This document shows, in pieces, positions 11,017 through 63,085 of a stretch of DNA of 64,000 nt; positions within the stretch are counted from its first letter, which is position 1; every line of letters starts with the position of its first letter. A model generated the notes under the pieces. That model was not told where the DNA came from. It saw only the letters and a list, made by a program, of their open reading frames with translations, and ran no database searches. The position numbers and the translations under genes are program-made. The DNA is taken from assembly GCA_049523135.1 (NCBI GenBank), contig JBEKNE010000001.1, positions 542,809 through 606,808 of the forward strand, in the 5' to 3' direction. The DNA is from Candidatus Microgenomates bacterium (GTDB lineage Bacteria > Patescibacteriota > Microgenomatia > UBA8517).

Positions 11017-11528
11017 TTAACGTCTCCTCCGGAACCGACAAGAATATTGGCCTGGCTTCCGGTTTGTATTTGAGTAACAGTAATTGTTGCCTGACTTCCG
11101 GCCGGAATATTTGTCCCCGAACCCAAACCTTTAAAAAAAATCGGATTTGTATCATTTGAAATGGAAATTTCGGGAGGTAGGGTAGCTGTTGGTTTTACGG
11201 GAACTGGTAAAACCGCACCATCGCAAACATAATATATAGAATAAGTTGTTGAAGAATCTATCGAAAAATTTATTCCATCAAGTGAATTACAACCGGATGA
11301 CGGTTTGGTACCTGATAATGCATCCTGTTGGGCAAGCCTTAAATCACCTTGAACCTGTTTTACTACTCCTGTCAGGGCCTGACGTCTGGAAAAATCCCTG
11401 AAACCAACATAACTCACAGAAAAAAGTATTCCTATGATTGTCAAACTAACCAAAAGTTCAATCAGGGTGTATCCATACACACTGACAAAATTCTTCCGAA
11501 TGGTTCTTATAAGTGTGTAACCTTTCAT
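11013..11528 (-). CDS. Prepilin-like pseudopilin
   Basis: VYG|YTLIELLVSLTIIGILF. Confidence 0.65.
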   Translation of the reverse strand: MKGYTLIRTIRKNFVSVYGYTLIELLVSLTIIGILFSVSYVGFRDFSRRQALTGVVKQVQGDLRLAQQDALSGTKPSSGCNSLDGINFSIDSSTTYSIYYVCDGAVLPVPVKPTATLPPEISISNDTNPIFFKGLGSGTNIPAGSQATITVTQIQTGSQANILVGSGGDVK

Positions 11529-11980
11529 GGATTTATAACCTCATAATTACATGTACTGCAACTCCCGCAGTCTCCAGTGGGAATAGGTGATGCTGGAGGC
11601 TGTTCCAGTGTTGCACACAGCGTATATTTGTTATAAGTAACGCCATCCGACGCCAAAACCGGATAATATGGATAACTATCGGAAGTGACAGGATCGGTGG
11701 GAACATGGCTTATATAAGTATTTTTCGTCGAACAAGCAGATGATGGATCATCGACAGTCCCTACTAATTGGCTAGATAGAGCTGCAGGATAAGAATCACA
11801 ATCGGCCTTGTAAATTTCAAGTCCGCTTCTGATCTCTTCAAGATCCGATTTCCTTCTGGCATCACGTGCCGACTGGCGAGCTCCCTGAAGGCCAAAAACA
11901 GAAAGAGCAAGCAGGATTCCAATGATGGAAATAACAACCAAAAGTTCAATTAGTGTAAATCCCTTCTTCACAAAATTCAT
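11525..11980 (-). CDS. Type IV pilin/pseudopilin
   Basis: MNFVKKG|FTLIELLVVISIIGIL. Confidence 0.75.
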   Translation of the reverse strand: MNFVKKGFTLIELLVVISIIGILLALSVFGLQGARQSARDARRKSDLEEIRSGLEIYKADCDSYPAALSSQLVGTVDDPSSACSTKNTYISHVPTDPVTSDSYPYYPVLASDGVTYNKYTLCATLEQPPASPIPTGDCGSCSTCNYEVINP

Positions 11981-11983
11981 ATA

Positions 11984-12514
11984 TTATTGTGTTAATCCTG
12001 CTGGACAAGCAGCATCATCAAAGGATGGTGTTTCTGACGAAACAAGTTTGCCCGACTGACCTGTTGAACATACAATCCAATACGTATTTGTCGCACTTTC
12101 AAGTTTAGCCCAAAGGATATACTCTGTAGCTAAAGCGTTTGATTGATAATGATATTGAAGATAAGAATTGTCGTTTGCATATTTCGGATCTTCGGGACAA
12201 TCTGAAGTGTTGGTCAAAAAACCTGAACTAACTAGAGCAGAGCATAAACCACTCGTAATAGTAGAGGCTGCAGAAGGAAAATAAAGACCGTTATTCTTAT
12301 TTGCATAGGATTCAAGTGCATTTCTATATTGAGAAAGGTCAGATTTTCTTTGAGTATCCCTCGCTTGTTTTTGAGCCGAAACAAAAGAAACCGTAAACAA
12401 CGCCACCAAAATCCCGATAATGGAAATAACAACAAGAAGTTCAATTAGTGTAAATCCCTTTATATTTTTTTTCATTGTTGACTTACTTGAAACATCCAAC
12501 CGGTAGAACACCAC
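11984..12514 (-). CDS. Type IV pilin/pseudopilin (start probably at the internal MKKNIKG)
   Basis: KG|FTLIELLVVISIIGIL. Confidence 0.75.
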   Translation of the reverse strand: MVFYRLDVSSKSTMKKNIKGFTLIELLVVISIIGILVALFTVSFVSAQKQARDTQRKSDLSQYRNALESYANKNNGLYFPSAASTITSGLCSALVSSGFLTNTSDCPEDPKYANDNSYLQYHYQSNALATEYILWAKLESATNTYWIVCSTGQSGKLVSSETPSFDDAACPAGLTQ

Positions 12515-12999
12515 GTTGTATCACTTGTAGCAATTCCACTAGTATCACTTTGGTTTTCCAGACATGCGGAAAGAGTGTAAGAATCAGTATCACTTGGGTC
12601 TGAAGCATTACCCATTACATATTTATAATTTTGAGTTGCAGAGGTCGGATCTTGAGACATAGGATCTTTCGGAAGAGTTTGCATATAAATAGTTGATCCG
12701 ATATTCCACTCGGTACCCCAAGTGCAAATAACAACTGTTCCGCCTCCGTTGGGATCACAAGCCACCATTTGATTACTACTGCTAGATGGATATCTTCCTT
12801 TGTCATTGTAATAAAGCCTGAGTGCGGTCTGAATATTTTTAAGATCTGATTTTCTTTCCACATCACGCGCGCGTGACCTCGCTGAATTTAAATTTGCCGC
12901 AACCAGCGTAGCCAAAATTCCTATTATGGAAATAACAACAAGAAGTTCGATAAGCGTAAATCCGGATTTTTTATATGATGATAGATTATGGGCAGACAT
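12472..12999 (-). CDS. Type IV pilin/pseudopilin
   Basis: KKSG|FTLIELLVVISIIGILA. Confidence 0.75.
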   Translation of the reverse strand: MSAHNLSSYKKSGFTLIELLVVISIIGILATLVAANLNSARSRARDVERKSDLKNIQTALRLYYNDKGRYPSSSSNQMVACDPNGGGTVVICTWGTEWNIGSTIYMQTLPKDPMSQDPTSATQNYKYVMGNASDPSDTDSYTLSACLENQSDTSGIATSDTTWCSTGWMFQVSQQ

Positions 13000-20265: not shown

Positions 20266-24140
<3,875 letters not shown>

Positions 24141-37213: not shown

Positions 37214-37300
37214 AAGTTAAAATAACTCCAGATATCAAGAGTGCGGGGAAGGACTTAGCCTGATGATCCGCCGACAACCTGGAAGTAAAGGCTTCGAAAG

Positions 37301-38386
37301 GTGCCAAAGCTAAAAAACGATATGAGTAAAAACATCTTCTTAGATAGTTTTAAAAATTATACCGTAGAATCCGTAACTAGTGGTCATCCGGATAAAATCT
37401 GCGATCAGGTTTCCGATGCAATTCTTGATGAATGTTTAAGACAAGACCCCAAAAGCCGTGTTGCTATAGAGAGTTTCGGAAGTCACGGACTTTTTGTCAT
37501 CGGTGGAGAAGTCACAACACGTGCCAAATTCGATGCCGCCAAAATCGCCACAAAAGTTTACAAGGATACAGGGCACACCGACAAACTAAAAATCATTACA
37601 AATGTAGTCAAACAGTCTCCCGATATTGCCTTGGGGGTTGATACCGGTGGAGCAGGGGACCAGGGAATTATGTATGGGTTTGCCACGGATGAAACTCCGG
37701 AATATTTGCCACGGGCAGTAGCCCTGGTTCATAAACTAACACGCGGATTGGAAGATCTGCGAAGAAGCAAAAAGATTAAGTGGTTACTGCCCGACGGCAA
37801 AGCCCAGATAACAATGCAAAATGGAAAAATTAAAACAGTTTTGGTTTCGACTCAACACAAAAAGGGAATTCCCATAGAAACCATCCGACGCGAAATCACA
37901 AATAAATTAATTAAAAGGGTGGTGGGGGATACAAAAGGTATCAATATTTTGGTCAATCCTACGGGTAGATTTGAAGTCGGAGGATTTATGGGAGATACGG
38001 GATTAACCGGCAGAAAAATTATGGTTGACACATATGGTGGGCTTGTCCCTCACGGCGGTGGATGTTTTTCCGGCAAAGATCCGACAAAGGTAGATAGAAG
38101 CGGCGCCTACATGTGCAGATTTGTTGCCAAAAATTTGGTTGCTAAAGGACTTGGAAAAAGTGTTCTTGTATCGGTAGCCTATGCAATCGGAAAAGCCGAT
38201 CCTTTAATGATTAATGCCGAAAATGAAAAAGGTAAAGATTTAACGCTTTATGTTAAAAAACATTACGATTTCAGACCCTTGGCAATTATCGAAAAACTAG
38301 ATTTGAGAAGACCGATTTATCAAGCAACCGCTTCATATGGCCACTTTGGCCGTAAAGGTTTTCCTTGGGAAGAAATTGAAAACTAA
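37301..38386 (+). CDS. metK: S-adenosylmethionine synthetase
   Basis: GHPDKICDQVSDAILD and HGGGCFSGKDPTKVDRSGAY are the MAT signatures. Confidence 0.85.
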   Translation: MPKLKNDMSKNIFLDSFKNYTVESVTSGHPDKICDQVSDAILDECLRQDPKSRVAIESFGSHGLFVIGGEVTTRAKFDAAKIATKVYKDTGHTDKLKIITNVVKQSPDIALGVDTGGAGDQGIMYGFATDETPEYLPRAVALVHKLTRGLEDLRRSKKIKWLLPDGKAQITMQNGKIKTVLVSTQHKKGIPIETIRREITNKLIKRVVGDTKGINILVNPTGRFEVGGFMGDTGLTGRKIMVDTYGGLVPHGGGCFSGKDPTKVDRSGAYMCRFVAKNLVAKGLGKSVLVSVAYAIGKADPLMINAENEKGKDLTLYVKKHYDFRPLAIIEKLDLRRPIYQATASYGHFGRKGFPWEEIEN

Positions 38387-38610: not shown

Positions 38611-40827
38611 TTACTTTCCCCCTTTTCCATGGAAGGCTTCATGAACATCACGAAGTTGTTTATTTGTAACATGTGTATAAATCTGTGTTGTTGAAATATT
38701 TTTGTGTCCCAGCATTTCCTGAACGCTTCTTATATCAGCCCCTGCCATAAGGAGATCGGTTGCAAAAGAATTATGACTTACTATTCCATCAGTTATTAAA
38801 TTTTGAGCAGGGGAGACTGTAAAATCAAAAACACTATATCTATTAAACGGTAACTTTTTGATTTTTTTGACTTTTAACCATTTCAAATTTTCTGCATTAT
38901 AAATATTTTTAAGTAGTTTAAATTCTTTACCGTTATAGCCAAACTTATCGATTTGCCTGATAAATTTTGCAACCGTCGATTTCATAGGCACCATGTCATT
39001 TAAGTTTCTATTCGATTTGATATTTTCATTATGAGAAAGAGCGTATCTAAAACCAGTTCTTCCGTTCTTTTCCAAATTCTTAAAAATCGAGTTTAAGATA
39101 CCCTGTACCGGAATTTTTTCATCTTCCCAAATAGAAGAATCTCTTAATGTTCCTTTTTTAAGTGTTGGAATTAGTTTAATAAATGATCTTTGATCCTCTT
39201 TACCAATCACTTGTAACGTATAAAAATTATGACGAAAATATTTTCCTTGCGGAAGCTTTACTATCCTGTCTCGCACCATAAGATGTGCATCAATCCCAAG
39301 TCTAAGTAACAACATTTGAACATCTTTTAACAAATCTTTCGAAGATGAAAAAAATCTTGGAGCGTCATTGGAATTTCCTTCCGCATCATAAAAACCAGCA
39401 ATAAATCCCATTATTTCATCTCTGGTAGCATTCATTATCTGATGGGGAACACGTTTCAGATTTAAATGCACACCCATCCCTAAACCAAGCAAAAATTCTA
39501 CAAACTGTTCAGAATAATAGTTAAGTCTATATGAATTCGTTTCGGGATTTTTTTCGATTTTAGCATTACCTTTAAATTTTTCTATAATAATTCTTTGATA
39601 AAATTCAAGGTTTTTTCTATCCTTATCATAAATTATTACACCCCGTCTTACTTTACTTACAACTCCATCTCCCAAAATATAACCAACAAGCCTTGCCAAT
39701 GCCGGATCCATAATTCTAATTCCGGGAAAATCAACTTTTTTAACTCCGACAATATAATTACCGACCTTCAAATTGGATATTTTAATTTCTCTAATTTCGC
39801 TGTTTGATAATGTAAAGACTCTATGTGTGCCAGAACATACCAATTCATATCCGTCCGCCCAAACCGAATATAAATCCGATATGTGATACTCCTTCCCAAT
39901 TACTTTCGAATCTACAACTCTGCCGGTTTTAAAATCGACACCAAATATTTCGTCTTTTTCTTCATAGTAGGCGTCCCTCGCAGATTGTATTTCATTTCCG
40001 AGGAAGATCCTTGTGTCAGGATGTAAACAGTGCCTCATCACATGAGGTGTAACTTCAATCGGCAGTTTCATTTTATGAGAATATTTTTTTACCATTCTCT
40101 GAACCGATCGGGGAGTTAGACGCATTTTTTCACCGCTTGTTGTCGGATCAACCTTGCCTTTGTGATGTATAAAAAGCGGTTTGTAGTGATCATCGCGTTC
40201 ACTGAGATATTTGATAAGCCAATCGGCCGCCCGCTGTGATAGAAACACAACCCTGGCCTTTCCCCCTTTTCCGATTATTCCAAACTCCCGCCTGTCCAAA
40301 TCAATTTTGTCACGGTCCAGCTTACAAAGTTCCGAAACACGAAGTCCAGTAGAAAAAAGCACTTCCAAAATTGCCTTATCTCTCTTTCCCTGAATAGAAT
40401 CAAGTGAGGGTGCATTAAGAAGTCTGTCCACCTGTTCGCCGTTTAAAAATTTAACAGACCTCTCTTCAATTTTCGGAAGTTCAATTTTATCAGGAGCCAT
40501 TACCGCATAATCGTTTTTGAGAAGCCATTTTAGAAAACTTCTCATTGCAATAACGTGATAGCTTTGAGTCCGCCTGCCCATTAGGGCTTTTCCTTCTCCG
40601 GGAAGGTTTGAAAGATAAACTCTAAAACTTCTGATAACTTCAGGGTTAATATCTTTCAGGTCTTCCCGAATACCCTGTGAACTCATCCATTTAATAAAAC
40701 GCGTCAGATAATGTCGATAGTTTCTGATCGTTAGGGGAGAGCAGCCTTTTTCAACTTGAAGATATTCCAAAAACTGGTCTACTTTTTTGGCTATCTCACT
40801 TTGATTGATTGGTGCAGTATCAACCAT
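38611..40827 (-). CDS. XerC/XerD-family tyrosine recombinase interrupted in-frame by an intein
   Basis: N-terminal core-binding domain ([26 protein letters not shown]); catalytic box PHVMRH|[intein]|[34 protein letters not shown]. The exteins reconstitute the canonical HxxRHSFAT...GH..I.TTQIYTH. Confidence 0.8.
38770..40029 (-). mobile_element. Intein (420 aa) with LAGLIDADG homing endonuclease inside the tyrosine recombinase active site
   Basis: Block [14 protein letters not shown]; block B SGTHRVFT; LAGLIDADG motifs [12 protein letters not shown] and [12 protein letters not shown]; block [25 protein letters not shown] followed by a +1 Ser. Boundaries were computed from codon positions (Cys 40029-40027, Asn 38772-38770). 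Confidence 0.75.
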
Positions 40828-41986: not shown

Positions 41987-42484
41987 TTAATTCCACTTAA
42001 AGTCCTTCTCTTTACTCTTATATGACTTCATCTCCATTCGTATCTCTTGAAGTCTTTCAATGTTATCTCTATTCCACTCAACTTTGACAAATCCTTTCTT
42101 ACCCCTCTCAAGATTGACTCCTTTCTTCTTGTTTCTAGCGATTATCTCCACTGCTTCCTTCCATAAATTAAAGTCTTTTGCTTTTTTCCCATACAATTTA
42201 TGGAGACTGAAAAAAGGAATAATTTTATTCAGTAGATCATCAGTATTCTGAACTTGATAACGTACAAAAGTGCTTGAATAACTTATATCTCCACAGGCCA
42301 ACCCATCCTTAATCATTTTCAGAAGGTCGGCATCATCAGCCCTAAGCACGATAGCAAAGACAGCATGCCATCTAAAATACATGGGCGAGTTTATACGATT
42401 TTTCTTTAAATCCTGTCTAAAATTCAAGGAGAAGCAACCTTCACCGTCAACCAAACCAGAAACATAATCAAGGGGTAGGATCAT
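41987..42484 (-). CDS. Free-standing LAGLIDADG homing endonuclease (single-motif, I-CreI-like)
   Basis: MILPLDYVSGLVDGEGCFSL carries one LAGLIDADG motif; 165 aa; basic C-terminus. Confidence 0.75.
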   Translation of the reverse strand: MILPLDYVSGLVDGEGCFSLNFRQDLKKNRINSPMYFRWHAVFAIVLRADDADLLKMIKDGLACGDISYSSTFVRYQVQNTDDLLNKIIPFFSLHKLYGKKAKDFNLWKEAVEIIARNKKKGVNLERGKKGFVKVEWNRDNIERLQEIRMEMKSYKSKEKDFKWN

Positions 42485-60280: not shown

Positions 60281-63085
60281 TTACTTTGTGTGTTTTGTTT
60301 CTCTTCCAAAAAACTTAATCCTGTCCCCTCTGAAGCGAAGAGGAACGCTTTTTAAAGGACCGTTTCTATGTTTGGCAATATCAAGCATAATATTTTCAGG
60401 GTTTTCATCATCTTCACGCCAGAGAAACATGACAACGTCCGAATCTTGTTCAATCCCACCCGAGTCTCTGAGATCAGCAAGCTGCGGCTTCTTCCCCCCT
60501 CTAGTTTCAACAGCCCTAGAAAGCTGAGAAAGAGCCAAAACTGGAATTTTAAGCTCCCTTGCCAGATTTTTTAAGCCTTGAGAAATTTCCGATACCTCCT
60601 GAACTCGATTTTCCAGGTTTCTGGACCTTGCAAGCTGTAGATAGTCTACGACTAGGAGATCAAGCCCGTTTTCTACCTGAAGACGACGTGCTTTCGTGCG
60701 CATTTCAAGGATAGAAAGGGCAGGAGTATCATCAATAAATAGAGGTGCCTCAGCGAGAATACCCATTGCATCACTCAGCTTTGAAAAATCATCCTCCGAA
60801 AGTTTTCCAGTCTTCAGTTTCCACGCATCAATATCGGCTTGTGCAACCAAAAGCCTGTCTATAAGCTCTTCCCTACTCATTTCTAGCGAGAAAAATCCAA
60901 CCGGGCGTTTCAGCTCAACTGCAACATACTGAGCGATATTCATTGCTAGGGAGGTGTTATGAACCACAATATCATTTGCAATGAAGTTGTGGGTTTTATC
61001 AATCGCCAAATCGTATACACGCTTTACTCCTACCCGTCTAATGCTTACTATTTTGTCCCAATAAAGATCACTTTCCGCCAAATACAATAGTTTTCTTGAG
61101 TTTATTGCTAAAGCAACTTCCTTAAGAGTCTCTCTTCGTAACTGTCTTTTATTAACACGGATATTGTGCGTCAAGTTTCGACCCATTTTCCTATAAACCT
61201 CTCTCCATGTCATTTCCCCCTTCTCTTTGATAACCAATTTCCAAGCATCCATTGGTATCGTATCTTTAGACCATGTTTTTGGGATATTTACAGTTTTTGC
61301 CAATTTCTCTAGTTTTCTTATTTTGTCCTCTTTACCAAAAATACCTATTTCCTTAATAAACATTAGAATGTTTGTCGCACCCATAATCTCCAATTCAAAC
61401 GATTTTTTAAAACCCCCTTTATATCTAACTTTCTTCTCTCTGAGTCTGGCCAAAATACCGAACCTTAAGAGAAGGTGTTTTACTCCTTCTGCTAATTTGT
61501 ACGATGAAGAAGAAAAACTGATTCTACCCACTCCCCTAGATTTTGAGGGCATTGCGCTTCCTTCACATGCAAAAAGTCTATTAAGAAATAATCTCAGATT
61601 TTCCTTATTTAATTCAAAAACTTCTCTCGGTATTTCTTTTTCTATCGACAGTTTTCCCATTACACCTAGGGAGGTTAACCAATTGGAAACAGGGTTTTCC
61701 CTATCTATCCTTTCTGTATCTTCTCCTAAATATTCACTCAACTTTTTATAAGTAGATACACCAGGCAGAGAAACACCCGAAACCCACGCATCTACAAGTG
61801 CAGGACTTACACTAAGGATTAAAGCTAATTTTGTATGAGTTAAGTGGTTTTCTGTCATTTTTTTGCTGATTCTCTTGGCAAATTTAATTCGTAAATCTTT
61901 TCTATACGGATCTTTCTTTATTACAGTAACTGTAGGGGTTCTAAACCTAATCTTGCTTTGCTTTACCAACCTGGTGGTTACATCACCAAATTTTTCAACT
62001 GAATCACAAAAATCAGATAAAATAATATTGTTGCTATTAGTAAATCTTGGAGAAGAAGATGTCACACCCCCATCTCCTAATAGATAAGCCAGGATTTTTA
62101 CTCTCCAACTGTCCCAAACTCTATAGCCAAAATATTCCATCTTTCTTGGAATAGCTATTCTTACCCCAACTTTAAGTTCTTCTACTTTTTTCCAACCGTT
62201 AATTGTCAGTAATGGATGGACGGCCGTTGCTTCAAGTTTATTACCTAAGGCAGTCTTAATCTCATAAACAGGCTTTTTACCATCATCCACAAAGGCTGAG
62301 GGGTCAATTCCTCCATGAATCTTAAAATTACTATCCAATGTTGAGATTTTAACTTCCTTATGAGAAACAATATCTGATATTGTTTGCCTTCTACCCGTAC
62401 TAGAATCAATTACTAACGTATCTCCTGCCACACACTTTCCAACTCCAGGGCGCGCGGCTAAAACCAAGAGGTTTGATTGCTGCATTCCGGCCAAAGCATC
62501 ATCCAAATCAGGGAAGCCAGTCGGGACACCCCTCATGCCAGCTCCAGATTTATGCAACTCATCAAGTCTGTCAAAACTTTCTGCCAAGGTATCCCGAACT
62601 GAAGTAAAAGCCTTAGTTGAAGATCTCTGACTTAAGGAAAAAATTTCACTTTCGGCTTTATCAAGAGCCTCGCTTGCTCCCAATCCTTCATCCATCGAAA
62701 CTTCAACAAGTCGGGATGCTGCCGACATCAAAGATCTTTTCGTGGCAGTATCCTTAACAATTCTTCCGTAATGCTCAACGTGAGCCGCAGTCGGAACTTT
62801 ATTAGCAAGGTCTGCTAAAAACGACGAACTCCCGATACTTTTAAGAGCTTTCATCTTCTTAAGCCTCTCCGTAACAGTCAAAACATCAATTGGGATACGC
62901 TCTTCATAAAGATCAAGGCATGCGTTATAAATATCTCTGAGGCGTTCATCGTAAAAATCTTCAGGAAGCAAAAATTCTGCAACAGCAATAACCGCGTCCT
63001 TATCAATAAGCATCGCTCCAAGAACACTTTCTTCTGCTTCCTGGGAATGAGGTGGGACTCTAAGTTGGTTTGATTGTACTGCCAT
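60281..63085 (-). CDS. dnaB: Replicative DNA helicase DnaB, with an in-frame intein in the P-loop
   Basis: N-terminal domain (PHSQEAEESVLGAMLID); Walker A split as LVLAARPGVGK|[intein]|TSLAMNIAQ; C-terminal RecA-like motifs (LLVVDYLQL, SQLSR..E). Confidence 0.9.
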   Translation of the reverse strand: MAVQSNQLRVPPHSQEAEESVLGAMLIDKDAVIAVAEFLLPEDFYDERLRDIYNACLDLYEERIPIDVLTVTERLKKMKALKSIGSSSFLADLANKVPTAAHVEHYGRIVKDTATKRSLMSAASRLVEVSMDEGLGASEALDKAESEIFSLSQRSSTKAFTSVRDTLAESFDRLDELHKSGAGMRGVPTGFPDLDDALAGMQQSNLLVLAARPGVGKCVAGDTLVIDSSTGRRQTISDIVSHKEVKISTLDSNFKIHGGIDPSAFVDDGKKPVYEIKTALGNKLEATAVHPLLTINGWKKVEELKVGVRIAIPRKMEYFGYRVWDSWRVKILAYLLGDGGVTSSSPRFTNSNNIILSDFCDSVEKFGDVTTRLVKQSKIRFRTPTVTVIKKDPYRKDLRIKFAKRISKKMTENHLTHTKLALILSVSPALVDAWVSGVSLPGVSTYKKLSEYLGEDTERIDRENPVSNWLTSLGVMGKLSIEKEIPREVFELNKENLRLFLNRLFACEGSAMPSKSRGVGRISFSSSSYKLAEGVKHLLLRFGILARLREKKVRYKGGFKKSFELEIMGATNILMFIKEIGIFGKEDKIRKLEKLAKTVNIPKTWSKDTIPMDAWKLVIKEKGEMTWREVYRKMGRNLTHNIRVNKRQLRRETLKEVALAINSRKLLYLAESDLYWDKIVSIRRVGVKRVYDLAIDKTHNFIANDIVVHNTSLAMNIAQYVAVELKRPVGFFSLEMSREELIDRLLVAQADIDAWKLKTGKLSEDDFSKLSDAMGILAEAPLFIDDTPALSILEMRTKARRLQVENGLDLLVVDYLQLARSRNLENRVQEVSEISQGLKNLARELKIPVLALSQLSRAVETRGGKKPQLADLRDSGGIEQDSDVVMFLWREDDENPENIMLDIAKHRNGPLKSVPLRFRGDRIKFFGRETKHTK
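60956..62434 (-). mobile_element. DnaB intein (493 aa) with LAGLIDADG homing endonuclease
   Basis: Block A CVAGDTLVIDSS; block B ATAVHPLLT; LAGLIDADG motifs LAYLLGDGGVTS and LNRLFACEGS; block F/G RVYDLAIDKTHNFIANDIVVHN followed by a +1 Thr. Boundaries computed from codon positions. Confidence 0.8.

Follow-up and report, generated by a model that had tools for sequence, protein, structure and literature searches.

The stretch of DNA analysed here (hereafter the window) comprises 64,000 nucleotides of contig JBEKNE010000001.1 from a Candidatus Microgenomates bacterium, an uncultured and Woesebacteria-like organism. Its minus strand carries a gene of the Xer family of tyrosine recombinases, and this gene is interrupted in frame by an intein with the two motifs of a LAGLIDADG homing endonuclease. 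The intein lies in the HxxRH↓S box of the recombinase active site (the arrow marks a junction of extein and intein, or the corresponding point in uninterrupted sequences). The precursor and its parts, with counts taken from an alignment of 108 intein-bearing homologues, are the following.

38611..40827, minus strand: precursor open reading frame (ORF), Xer tyrosine recombinase split by an intein, 738 residues plus stop
40030..40827, minus strand: N-extein, residues 1-266, SAM-like core-binding domain and first part of the catalytic domain, C-terminal end PHVMRH
40339-40341, 40267-40269, 40042-40044 and 40033-40035, minus strand: N-extein catalytic residues Arg-I R163, Lys K187, His H262 and Arg-II R265, respectively
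38770..40029, minus strand: intein, residues 267-686, 420 residues, first residues CLHPD, last residues VSHN
40015..40029, minus strand: intein block A, CLHPD, with C267 (Cys1) as first nucleophile, Cys1 invariant (108 of 108)
39823..39834, minus strand: intein block B, S332-G-T-H335, the (S/T)xxH motif, H335 invariant, position 332 Ser in 79 and Thr in 29
39661..39693, minus strand: LAGLIDADG motif 1, residues 379-389, catalytic Asp D387 kept in 106 of 108
39370..39414, minus strand: LAGLIDADG motif 2, residues 472-486, position of catalytic Glu E483 acidic in 107 of 108
38770..38832, minus strand: intein blocks F and G, block F Asp D668, penultimate His685 and terminal Asn686 all invariant
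38614..38769, minus strand: C-extein, residues 687-738, starting with SFATDLL and ending with the recombinase C-terminus, including TTQIYTH
38767-38769, 38704-38706 and 38677-38679, minus strand: C-extein key residues Ser687 (+1 nucleophile, codon TCT), His H708 and the Tyr nucleophile Y717, respectively

The initial annotation had described a 420-residue insert that starts with Cys, ends with His-Asn, is followed by Ser at position +1 and contains intein blocks A, B and F/G together with two LAGLIDADG motifs. All of these elements were found; the terminal Cys, His-Asn and Ser were still there upon re-inspection. Pfam agrees, matching the insert to Intein_splicing (1.4e-14) and, in two stretches, to LAGLIDADG_3 (2.6e-19), and its flanks to Phage_int_SAM_1 (PF02899) and Phage_integrase (PF00589). 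The intein N- and C-terminal models of NCBIfam and several of its 'intein-containing' exception models overlap the insert as well; none of the exception models touching the insert was built for Xer. The intein feature in this Xer gene is far beyond chance. Cys1 and an Asp at position 4 of block F, in place of the Cys of class 3, assign the intein to class 1. Its GC content is 0.325 as compared to 0.408 in the exteins. A protein in the JGI collection that is otherwise identical to the precursor (P0001) is called with 691 residues, 47 fewer than the ORF; the longer start at 40827 is supported by intein-free homologues, which align from residue 1.

Removing the intein in silico yields an extein of 318 residues, which matches Phage_integrase over positions 1-170 of 172 (6e-44, Pfam) and the XerD model TIGR02225 over positions 1-288 of 290 (2.9e-78, NCBIfam), each in one stretch. 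It aligns end to end with Escherichia coli XerD (1A0P, 2.4e-44), with no gap at the junction, and with Pyrococcus abyssi XerA (4A8E, 1.5e-39). Together with intein-free alleles of 317-319 residues, the profile matches and the XerD alignment bear out the earlier proposal that the two exteins join without a gap into one contiguous Xer catalytic domain. The insertion point lies between the equivalents of XerD H248 and A249, in the box PHVMRH↓SFAT, one residue past the catalytic Arg-II. The established catalytic residues of XerD are R148, K172, H244, R247, H270 and Y279; by alignment these correspond to R163, K187, H262, R265, H708 and Y717. The R-K-H-R-H-Y set is thus complete in the spliced extein, and all six residues are invariant across the family alignment. 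With its N-terminal SAM-like core-binding domain and C-terminal catalytic domain, the extein has the same two domains and the same six catalytic residues as XerD and XerA. No characterised Xer protein is known to harbour an intein, in contrast to the Xer protein of the window. The spliced extein remains below the equivalog cut-offs for XerC (TIGR02224, 261.8 vs 335.15) and XerD (TIGR02225, 263.1 vs 329.6), and we therefore call the host Xer-family and neither XerC nor XerD specifically; the XerA_Arch cut-off is exceeded (238.4 vs 220). A second Xer homologue was not found within the 64-kb window. Since the intein parts R163, K187, H262 and R265 from H708 and Y717, it is reasonable to expect that the precursor would become active only after splicing.

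A search with the whole precursor returned 275 clusters at E <= 1e-10. Among the best 120 of these, 107 are full-length proteins of about 700-770 residues; the taxa represented include Woesebacteria, Gottesmanbacteria, Roizmanbacteria, Nealsonbacteria and unnamed Patescibacteria. The same architecture recurs in more than 100 independent clusters at 90% identity, which stem from numerous samples and sources. Across the 108 aligned sequences the intein measures 405-430 residues, and Cys1, the His at position -1, His335 of block B, Asp668 of block F, His685, Asn686 and Ser+1 are invariant. The positions of D387 and E483 are both acidic in 105 of the 108, and these acids and many residues around them are kept at intein identities down to about 44%. 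Both the splicing and the endonuclease functions thus appear to be under purifying selection. Some members already bear the automatic JGI annotation 'site-specific recombinase XerD/intein/homing endonuclease'.

Intein-free alleles in related genomes, which the initial annotation had suggested looking for, are abundant. Searching with the spliced extein revealed at least 120 proteins without intein domains, 309-325 residues long (mostly 317-319), which share 80-91% identity with the query. The top match (P0121, 91% identity) is encoded on a 164-kb contig at a locus (L001) whose gene order, YebC, DUF5656, a 246-residue gene, Xer, a small ORF, MetK, SIMPL and GyrA, mirrors that of the window. The junction at this locus reads PHVMRHSFATDLL and is free of gaps; the presumed intein-less target site can be written as ...CAYGTNATGMGNCAY↓TCNTTYGCNACNGAY... 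Extein DNA is 79.5% identical between the two loci, and in a blastn comparison of the window with this contig the only part of the Xer gene absent from the latter extends from about 40024 to 38768, i.e. the intein of about 1.26 kb. An intein-bearing allele, likewise 91% identical to the window extein, occupies the same syntenic locus (P0002). At this orthologous locus, and at one precise site, the intein shows a clean presence/absence polymorphism. On the intein-free contig, GyrA (11038..12954, minus strand) is called as two genes, a C-terminal part of 332 residues and an N-terminal part of at least 415 residues, 110 bp apart; the cause may be a frameshift, a gene that is split or an error of the assembly.

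An AlphaFold2 model of the precursor, built from the alignment of 108 sequences, reached a mean pLDDT of 81.9, with values above 90 through the intein. Foldseek against the PDB placed endonuclease-bearing inteins at the top (E from 1.9e-23 to 1e-10), namely TliVMA (7qss, 1.9e-23), PI-PfuI (1dq3, 1.9e-20), PI-PkoII and PI-SceI, followed by XerA, XerD, the free-standing LAGLIDADG enzyme I-DmoI (target-normalised TM about 0.7) and I-Tsp061I. The insert is thus predicted to contain a Hint fold and a LAGLIDADG core fold. A sequence search of the PDB also matched PI-PfuI, with GDG (D387) and DAEG (E483) aligned to the GDG and DAEG motifs of that enzyme. PI-PfuI (1DQ3), TliVMA (7QSS), PI-PkoII (2CW7) and PI-SceI, class 1 inteins of archaeal type, are the best sequence and fold matches of the Xer intein, and share with it a Hint fold (predicted here) interrupted by a two-motif LAGLIDADG endonuclease, the Cys1...His-Asn↓Ser chemistry and insertion in the conserved active site of a nucleic-acid enzyme. 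The Xer intein differs from them in its host, a tyrosine recombinase, and in its site, the HxxRH↓S box, and is only about 11-19% identical to them. The C-extein of the precursor was modelled with low confidence. A control model of the intein-free orthologue P0121, made from an alignment that was shallow (81-99% identity to its first sequence), reached a pLDDT of 62 and was equally uncertain at the C-terminus. Comparing the two for an undocking of the C-extein in the precursor was thus uninformative, and this idea was dropped.

The distribution of the intein was followed in two ways. Searching with the intein only among 1.84 billion cluster representatives gave 28 matches at E <= 1e-30, each covering residues 1-420 or a fragment thereof. 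Every match that includes the N-terminal junction reads HxxRH↓C. After a sharp drop follows a tier of 25-30% identity in other hosts, i.e. RadA, a radical-SAM protein, eRF1 and dCMP deaminase. A scan of one genome per GTDB species, made with an intein alignment, yielded 79 loci, 66 of them with both junctions readable; its patterns lie partly in the endonuclease, and endonuclease-deleted mini-inteins at the Xer site would be missed. All 66 readable loci carry an intein of 410-430 residues at P-H-x-x-R-H↓C ... S-H-N↓(S/C)-(F/Y)-A-T. In a Nomurabacteria-like subgroup (L025, L027, L030, L038, L043, L060, L065, L068) the +1 nucleophile is Cys (TGY) in place of Ser. Labels from the candidate phyla radiation (CPR) among the loci are Woese-, Gottesman-, Nealson-, Yanofsky-, Nomura-, Peregrini-, Kazan and Saccharibacteria, and further Azam-, Brenner-, Taylor-, Zambryski-, Kaiser- and Liptonbacteria. 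Several metagenome-assembled genomes labelled 'Gammaproteobacteria' by machine encode exteins of evidently the same CPR type.

Six loci are labelled as DPANN archaea (L015, L018, L020, L021, L022 and L063; Pace-, Woese- or Nanoarchaeota or 'archaeon') and have the same intein at the same site. The contig of one of them (L022) is truly archaeal, since about 1 kb downstream of the Xer gene it carries a ribosomal operon of archaeal kind (L18e-L13-S9). Three archaeal spliced exteins were scanned (L022, L015, L020), and these match XerA_Arch best, with 231-269 bits as compared to about 205 for XerD; in CPR exteins the XerD model scores best. Between archaea and CPR, pairwise identity is 32% for exteins and 41% for inteins; among CPR, it is 52% for exteins and 41% for inteins. 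The archaeal exteins branch at the root as a clade of their own in crude neighbour-joining trees, which were computed from identities and carry no support values; the archaeal inteins are placed among Parcubacteria-type inteins. Since the inteins are more alike across the domains than their hosts, transfer between domains is suggested. The simplest reading of these sequence comparisons is that the intein moved between CPR bacteria and DPANN archaea after the host genes had diverged.

More distant hosts are short tyrosine recombinases that are not Xer-like and carry the intein at HxxRH↓C (P0252, P0256, P0258, P0260-P0262, P0264, P0267). Their C-exteins are unlike those of Xer proteins (e.g. HN↓SRVTHLV, HN↓SFAINWIK). 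Spliced, these exteins measure 185-287 residues, most of them without an N-terminal domain, and match Phage_integrase contiguously over positions 2-170 of 172. That such proteins host the lineage means that it tracks the HxxRH↓S box of the superfamily and not Xer alone.

A tree built from the exteins of 227 alleles (intein present in 107, absent from 120) requires at least 11 gains or losses of the intein, as compared to about 76 when the labels are shuffled. Identities to the query in extein and intein are correlated (r = 0.80); over all CPR pairs, r is 0.40. Inheritance thus looks mostly vertical, with episodes of gain and loss. A further signal resides in the +1 codon. At 68 intein-bearing loci it is TCN in 57, AGY in 3 and TGY in 8 (i.e. 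60 Ser and 8 Cys). At 100 uninterrupted PHVMRH↓SFATDL sites from metagenomes, TCN and AGY are found 51 and 49 times, respectively (Fisher's exact p about 1e-9, with relatedness uncorrected). Intein-free alleles with at least 80% extein identity to the window have 8 TCN and 12 AGY, vs 9 TCN and no AGY in the nine closest intein-bearing alleles (Fisher's exact p 0.003, again with relatedness uncorrected). AGY makes up 30% of the Ser codons in the genes of the window. No single substitution interconverts TCN and AGY while keeping Ser, and the bias therefore fits three readings: a target preference of the endonuclease, to which AGY alleles would be refractory, co-conversion of the flanks during homing, or shared ancestry. 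We regard it as suggestive, not decisive.

Anatomy and conservation predict with high confidence a mechanism of class 1 splicing and LAGLIDADG homing, in which the precursor would be inactive and the freed intein would cleave DNA. Translation would give a precursor of 738 residues with R163, K187, H262 and R265 before and H708 and Y717 after the intein. Cys267 would undergo an N-S acyl shift, the N-extein would pass to the hydroxyl of Ser687, and Asn686 would cyclise, aided by His685, Asp668 and His335, so that the intein is freed. An O-N shift would then create the native peptide bond in ...PHVMRH-SFATDLL... and leave a normal recombinase of 318 residues. The freed intein of 420 residues would cut intein-free xer alleles at the codons of the box and would be copied in by break repair (homing). 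Homing would account for the patchy occurrence in close relatives, for the spread over CPR classes and for the presence in DPANN XerA and in paralogous recombinases.

We consider it likely, with a probability of about 85%, that the single Xer-type gene of the window carries in frame a genuine class 1 intein with a two-motif LAGLIDADG homing endonuclease that is probably active. Some points weigh against this reading. The correlation of extein and intein identities within CPR indicates that inheritance is vertical to a large part, and the window genome need not have an active endonuclease. The construction of the trees and the uncorrected relatedness in the codon comparison also count here, as does the low confidence of the modelled C-extein; the latter cannot be read as inactivity, since the model of the orthologue is just as poor there. 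In a rival explanation, the intein splices and is immobile, having been acquired early by CPR, inherited by descent and lost repeatedly, with an endonuclease domain that is kept for structural reasons or is inactive. This would agree with the correlation of identities to the query, with the strong clustering of presence on the extein tree (11 changes vs about 76 at random) and with the full size of the intein at all intein-bearing loci, where no forms in mid-decay were seen. We nevertheless hold it to be unlikely. The catalytic acids and neighbouring endonuclease residues are conserved even at low intein identity, alleles of 91% identity lack the intein at the same locus, and either target selectivity or co-conversion would fit the bias at the +1 codon. 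Moreover, the intein sits at the same site in DPANN XerA and in the short recombinases outside Xer, with inteins more similar than exteins.

Considerably less probable is a domesticated post-translational switch, in which splicing cued by redox state, DNA damage or temperature would gate the resolution of chromosome dimers by Xer. Conditional splicing occurs in some other inteins, the position in the active site should render the precursor inactive, and the intein is long-lived and conserved in many lineages. Yet most close relatives lack it at the same locus, so that it is not required; no sensor feature was identified, and the conserved endonuclease speaks for an element maintained by selfish means. 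The window probably derives from a metagenome assembly, and as a general possibility the insert might be an assembly artefact or a non-splicing disruption by a Hint-like domain of the bacterial intein-like (BIL) type, the gene being a pseudogene. We rule this out for practical purposes: the frame is intact, the architecture recurs in the independent clusters and the 66 genome loci, and all class 1 splice residues are invariant, including the +1 nucleophile that BIL domains lack. Beyond the preferred reading of a splicing, probably mobile intein, a wider claim may tentatively be advanced, though we would not expect it to hold in full. It states that no natural intein family of tyrosine recombinases has been described before this one, a single lineage that targets the universal HxxRH↓S box and has therefore moved horizontally among CPR classes and into DPANN XerA and short integrases, and to which alleles with AGY at +1 are refractory.

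Two other inteins and further elements were noted in the window.

20880..24140, plus strand: GyrB, with an intein of 434 residues at 22230..23531 (GGC↓FSG ... VHN↓SAKQ), no LAGLIDADG match and only a sub-threshold HNH_3 match, GC 0.313 as compared to 0.414 in the exteins
60281..63085, minus strand: DnaB, with an intein of 493 residues at 62434..60956 (GK↓CVAG ... VHN↓TSL), HTH_3 and LAGLIDADG_3, GC 0.358 as compared to 0.442
41987..42484, minus strand: free-standing LAGLIDADG_1 endonuclease ORF of 165 residues, about 1.1 kb from the Xer gene, in a 1.2-kb spacer between the 246-residue gene and the DUF5656 gene
37229..37326, plus strand: S-adenosylmethionine (SAM) riboswitch (Rfam RF00162, 46.2 bits), directly upstream of metK (37301..38386)

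DnaB and GyrB are classical bacterial hosts, and their inteins are the same kind of element as the Xer intein, in the same genome and with the same drop in GC (0.31-0.36 in the three inteins vs 0.41-0.44 in the host genes). They belong to different lineages, with an additional HTH_3 in that of DnaB and no LAGLIDADG match in that of GyrB. A derivation of the Xer intein from either was considered and rejected, since identity to the DnaB intein is 25% over 262 residues and similarity to the GyrB intein is not significant. For the LAGLIDADG_1 ORF, tblastn found no counterpart at the syntenic intein-free locus (L001), where the spacer is shorter, and Rfam revealed no intron RNA around it.

The initial annotation had called a site-specific recombinase an unusual intein host. 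For the literature this stands. Full-text searches brought up no description of a natural intein in a tyrosine recombinase; the matches were co-mentions, engineered split-intein systems and unrelated work. In the large intein survey by Novikova et al. (2016, PMC4760082), neither Xer nor integrase figures in the top-15 host lists, and CPR lay outside its coverage. For the databases it does not stand, since the intein is widespread in CPR and DPANN metagenomes and is named in some JGI labels. Host and insertion site apparently are undescribed, the mechanism is canonical and the sequences are already public; another intein host among DNA enzymes would not surprise a specialist. In engineered split-intein systems, Cre and, with Npu or Ssp DnaE inteins, phiC31 integrase have been split, and recombinase activity likewise depends on splicing to rejoin the two halves (PMC6868429, PMC7217698). 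Those systems are artificial, splice in trans and lack an endonuclease, whereas the Xer intein is natural and would be a cis-splicing, selfish element, its site set by homing.

Our findings add site-specific tyrosine recombinases to the natural hosts of inteins, in agreement with the rule that the best-conserved active-site motifs of DNA-handling enzymes are where inteins settle. In reduced genomes, a recombinase presumed to resolve chromosome dimers would need maturation by protein splicing. The CPR bacteria as well as the DPANN archaea are ultra-small episymbionts of the same groundwater communities, and an intein lineage common to both is a concrete marker of gene flow between the two groups. 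A short study would be worthwhile in view of the host family, the active-site location, the occurrence in both CPR and DPANN and the signal at the +1 codon. Intein-gated recombinases, hitherto engineered, have their natural counterpart in this family, from which new splicing domains could be obtained, and also endonucleases aimed at a sequence found in nearly all tyrosine recombinase genes.

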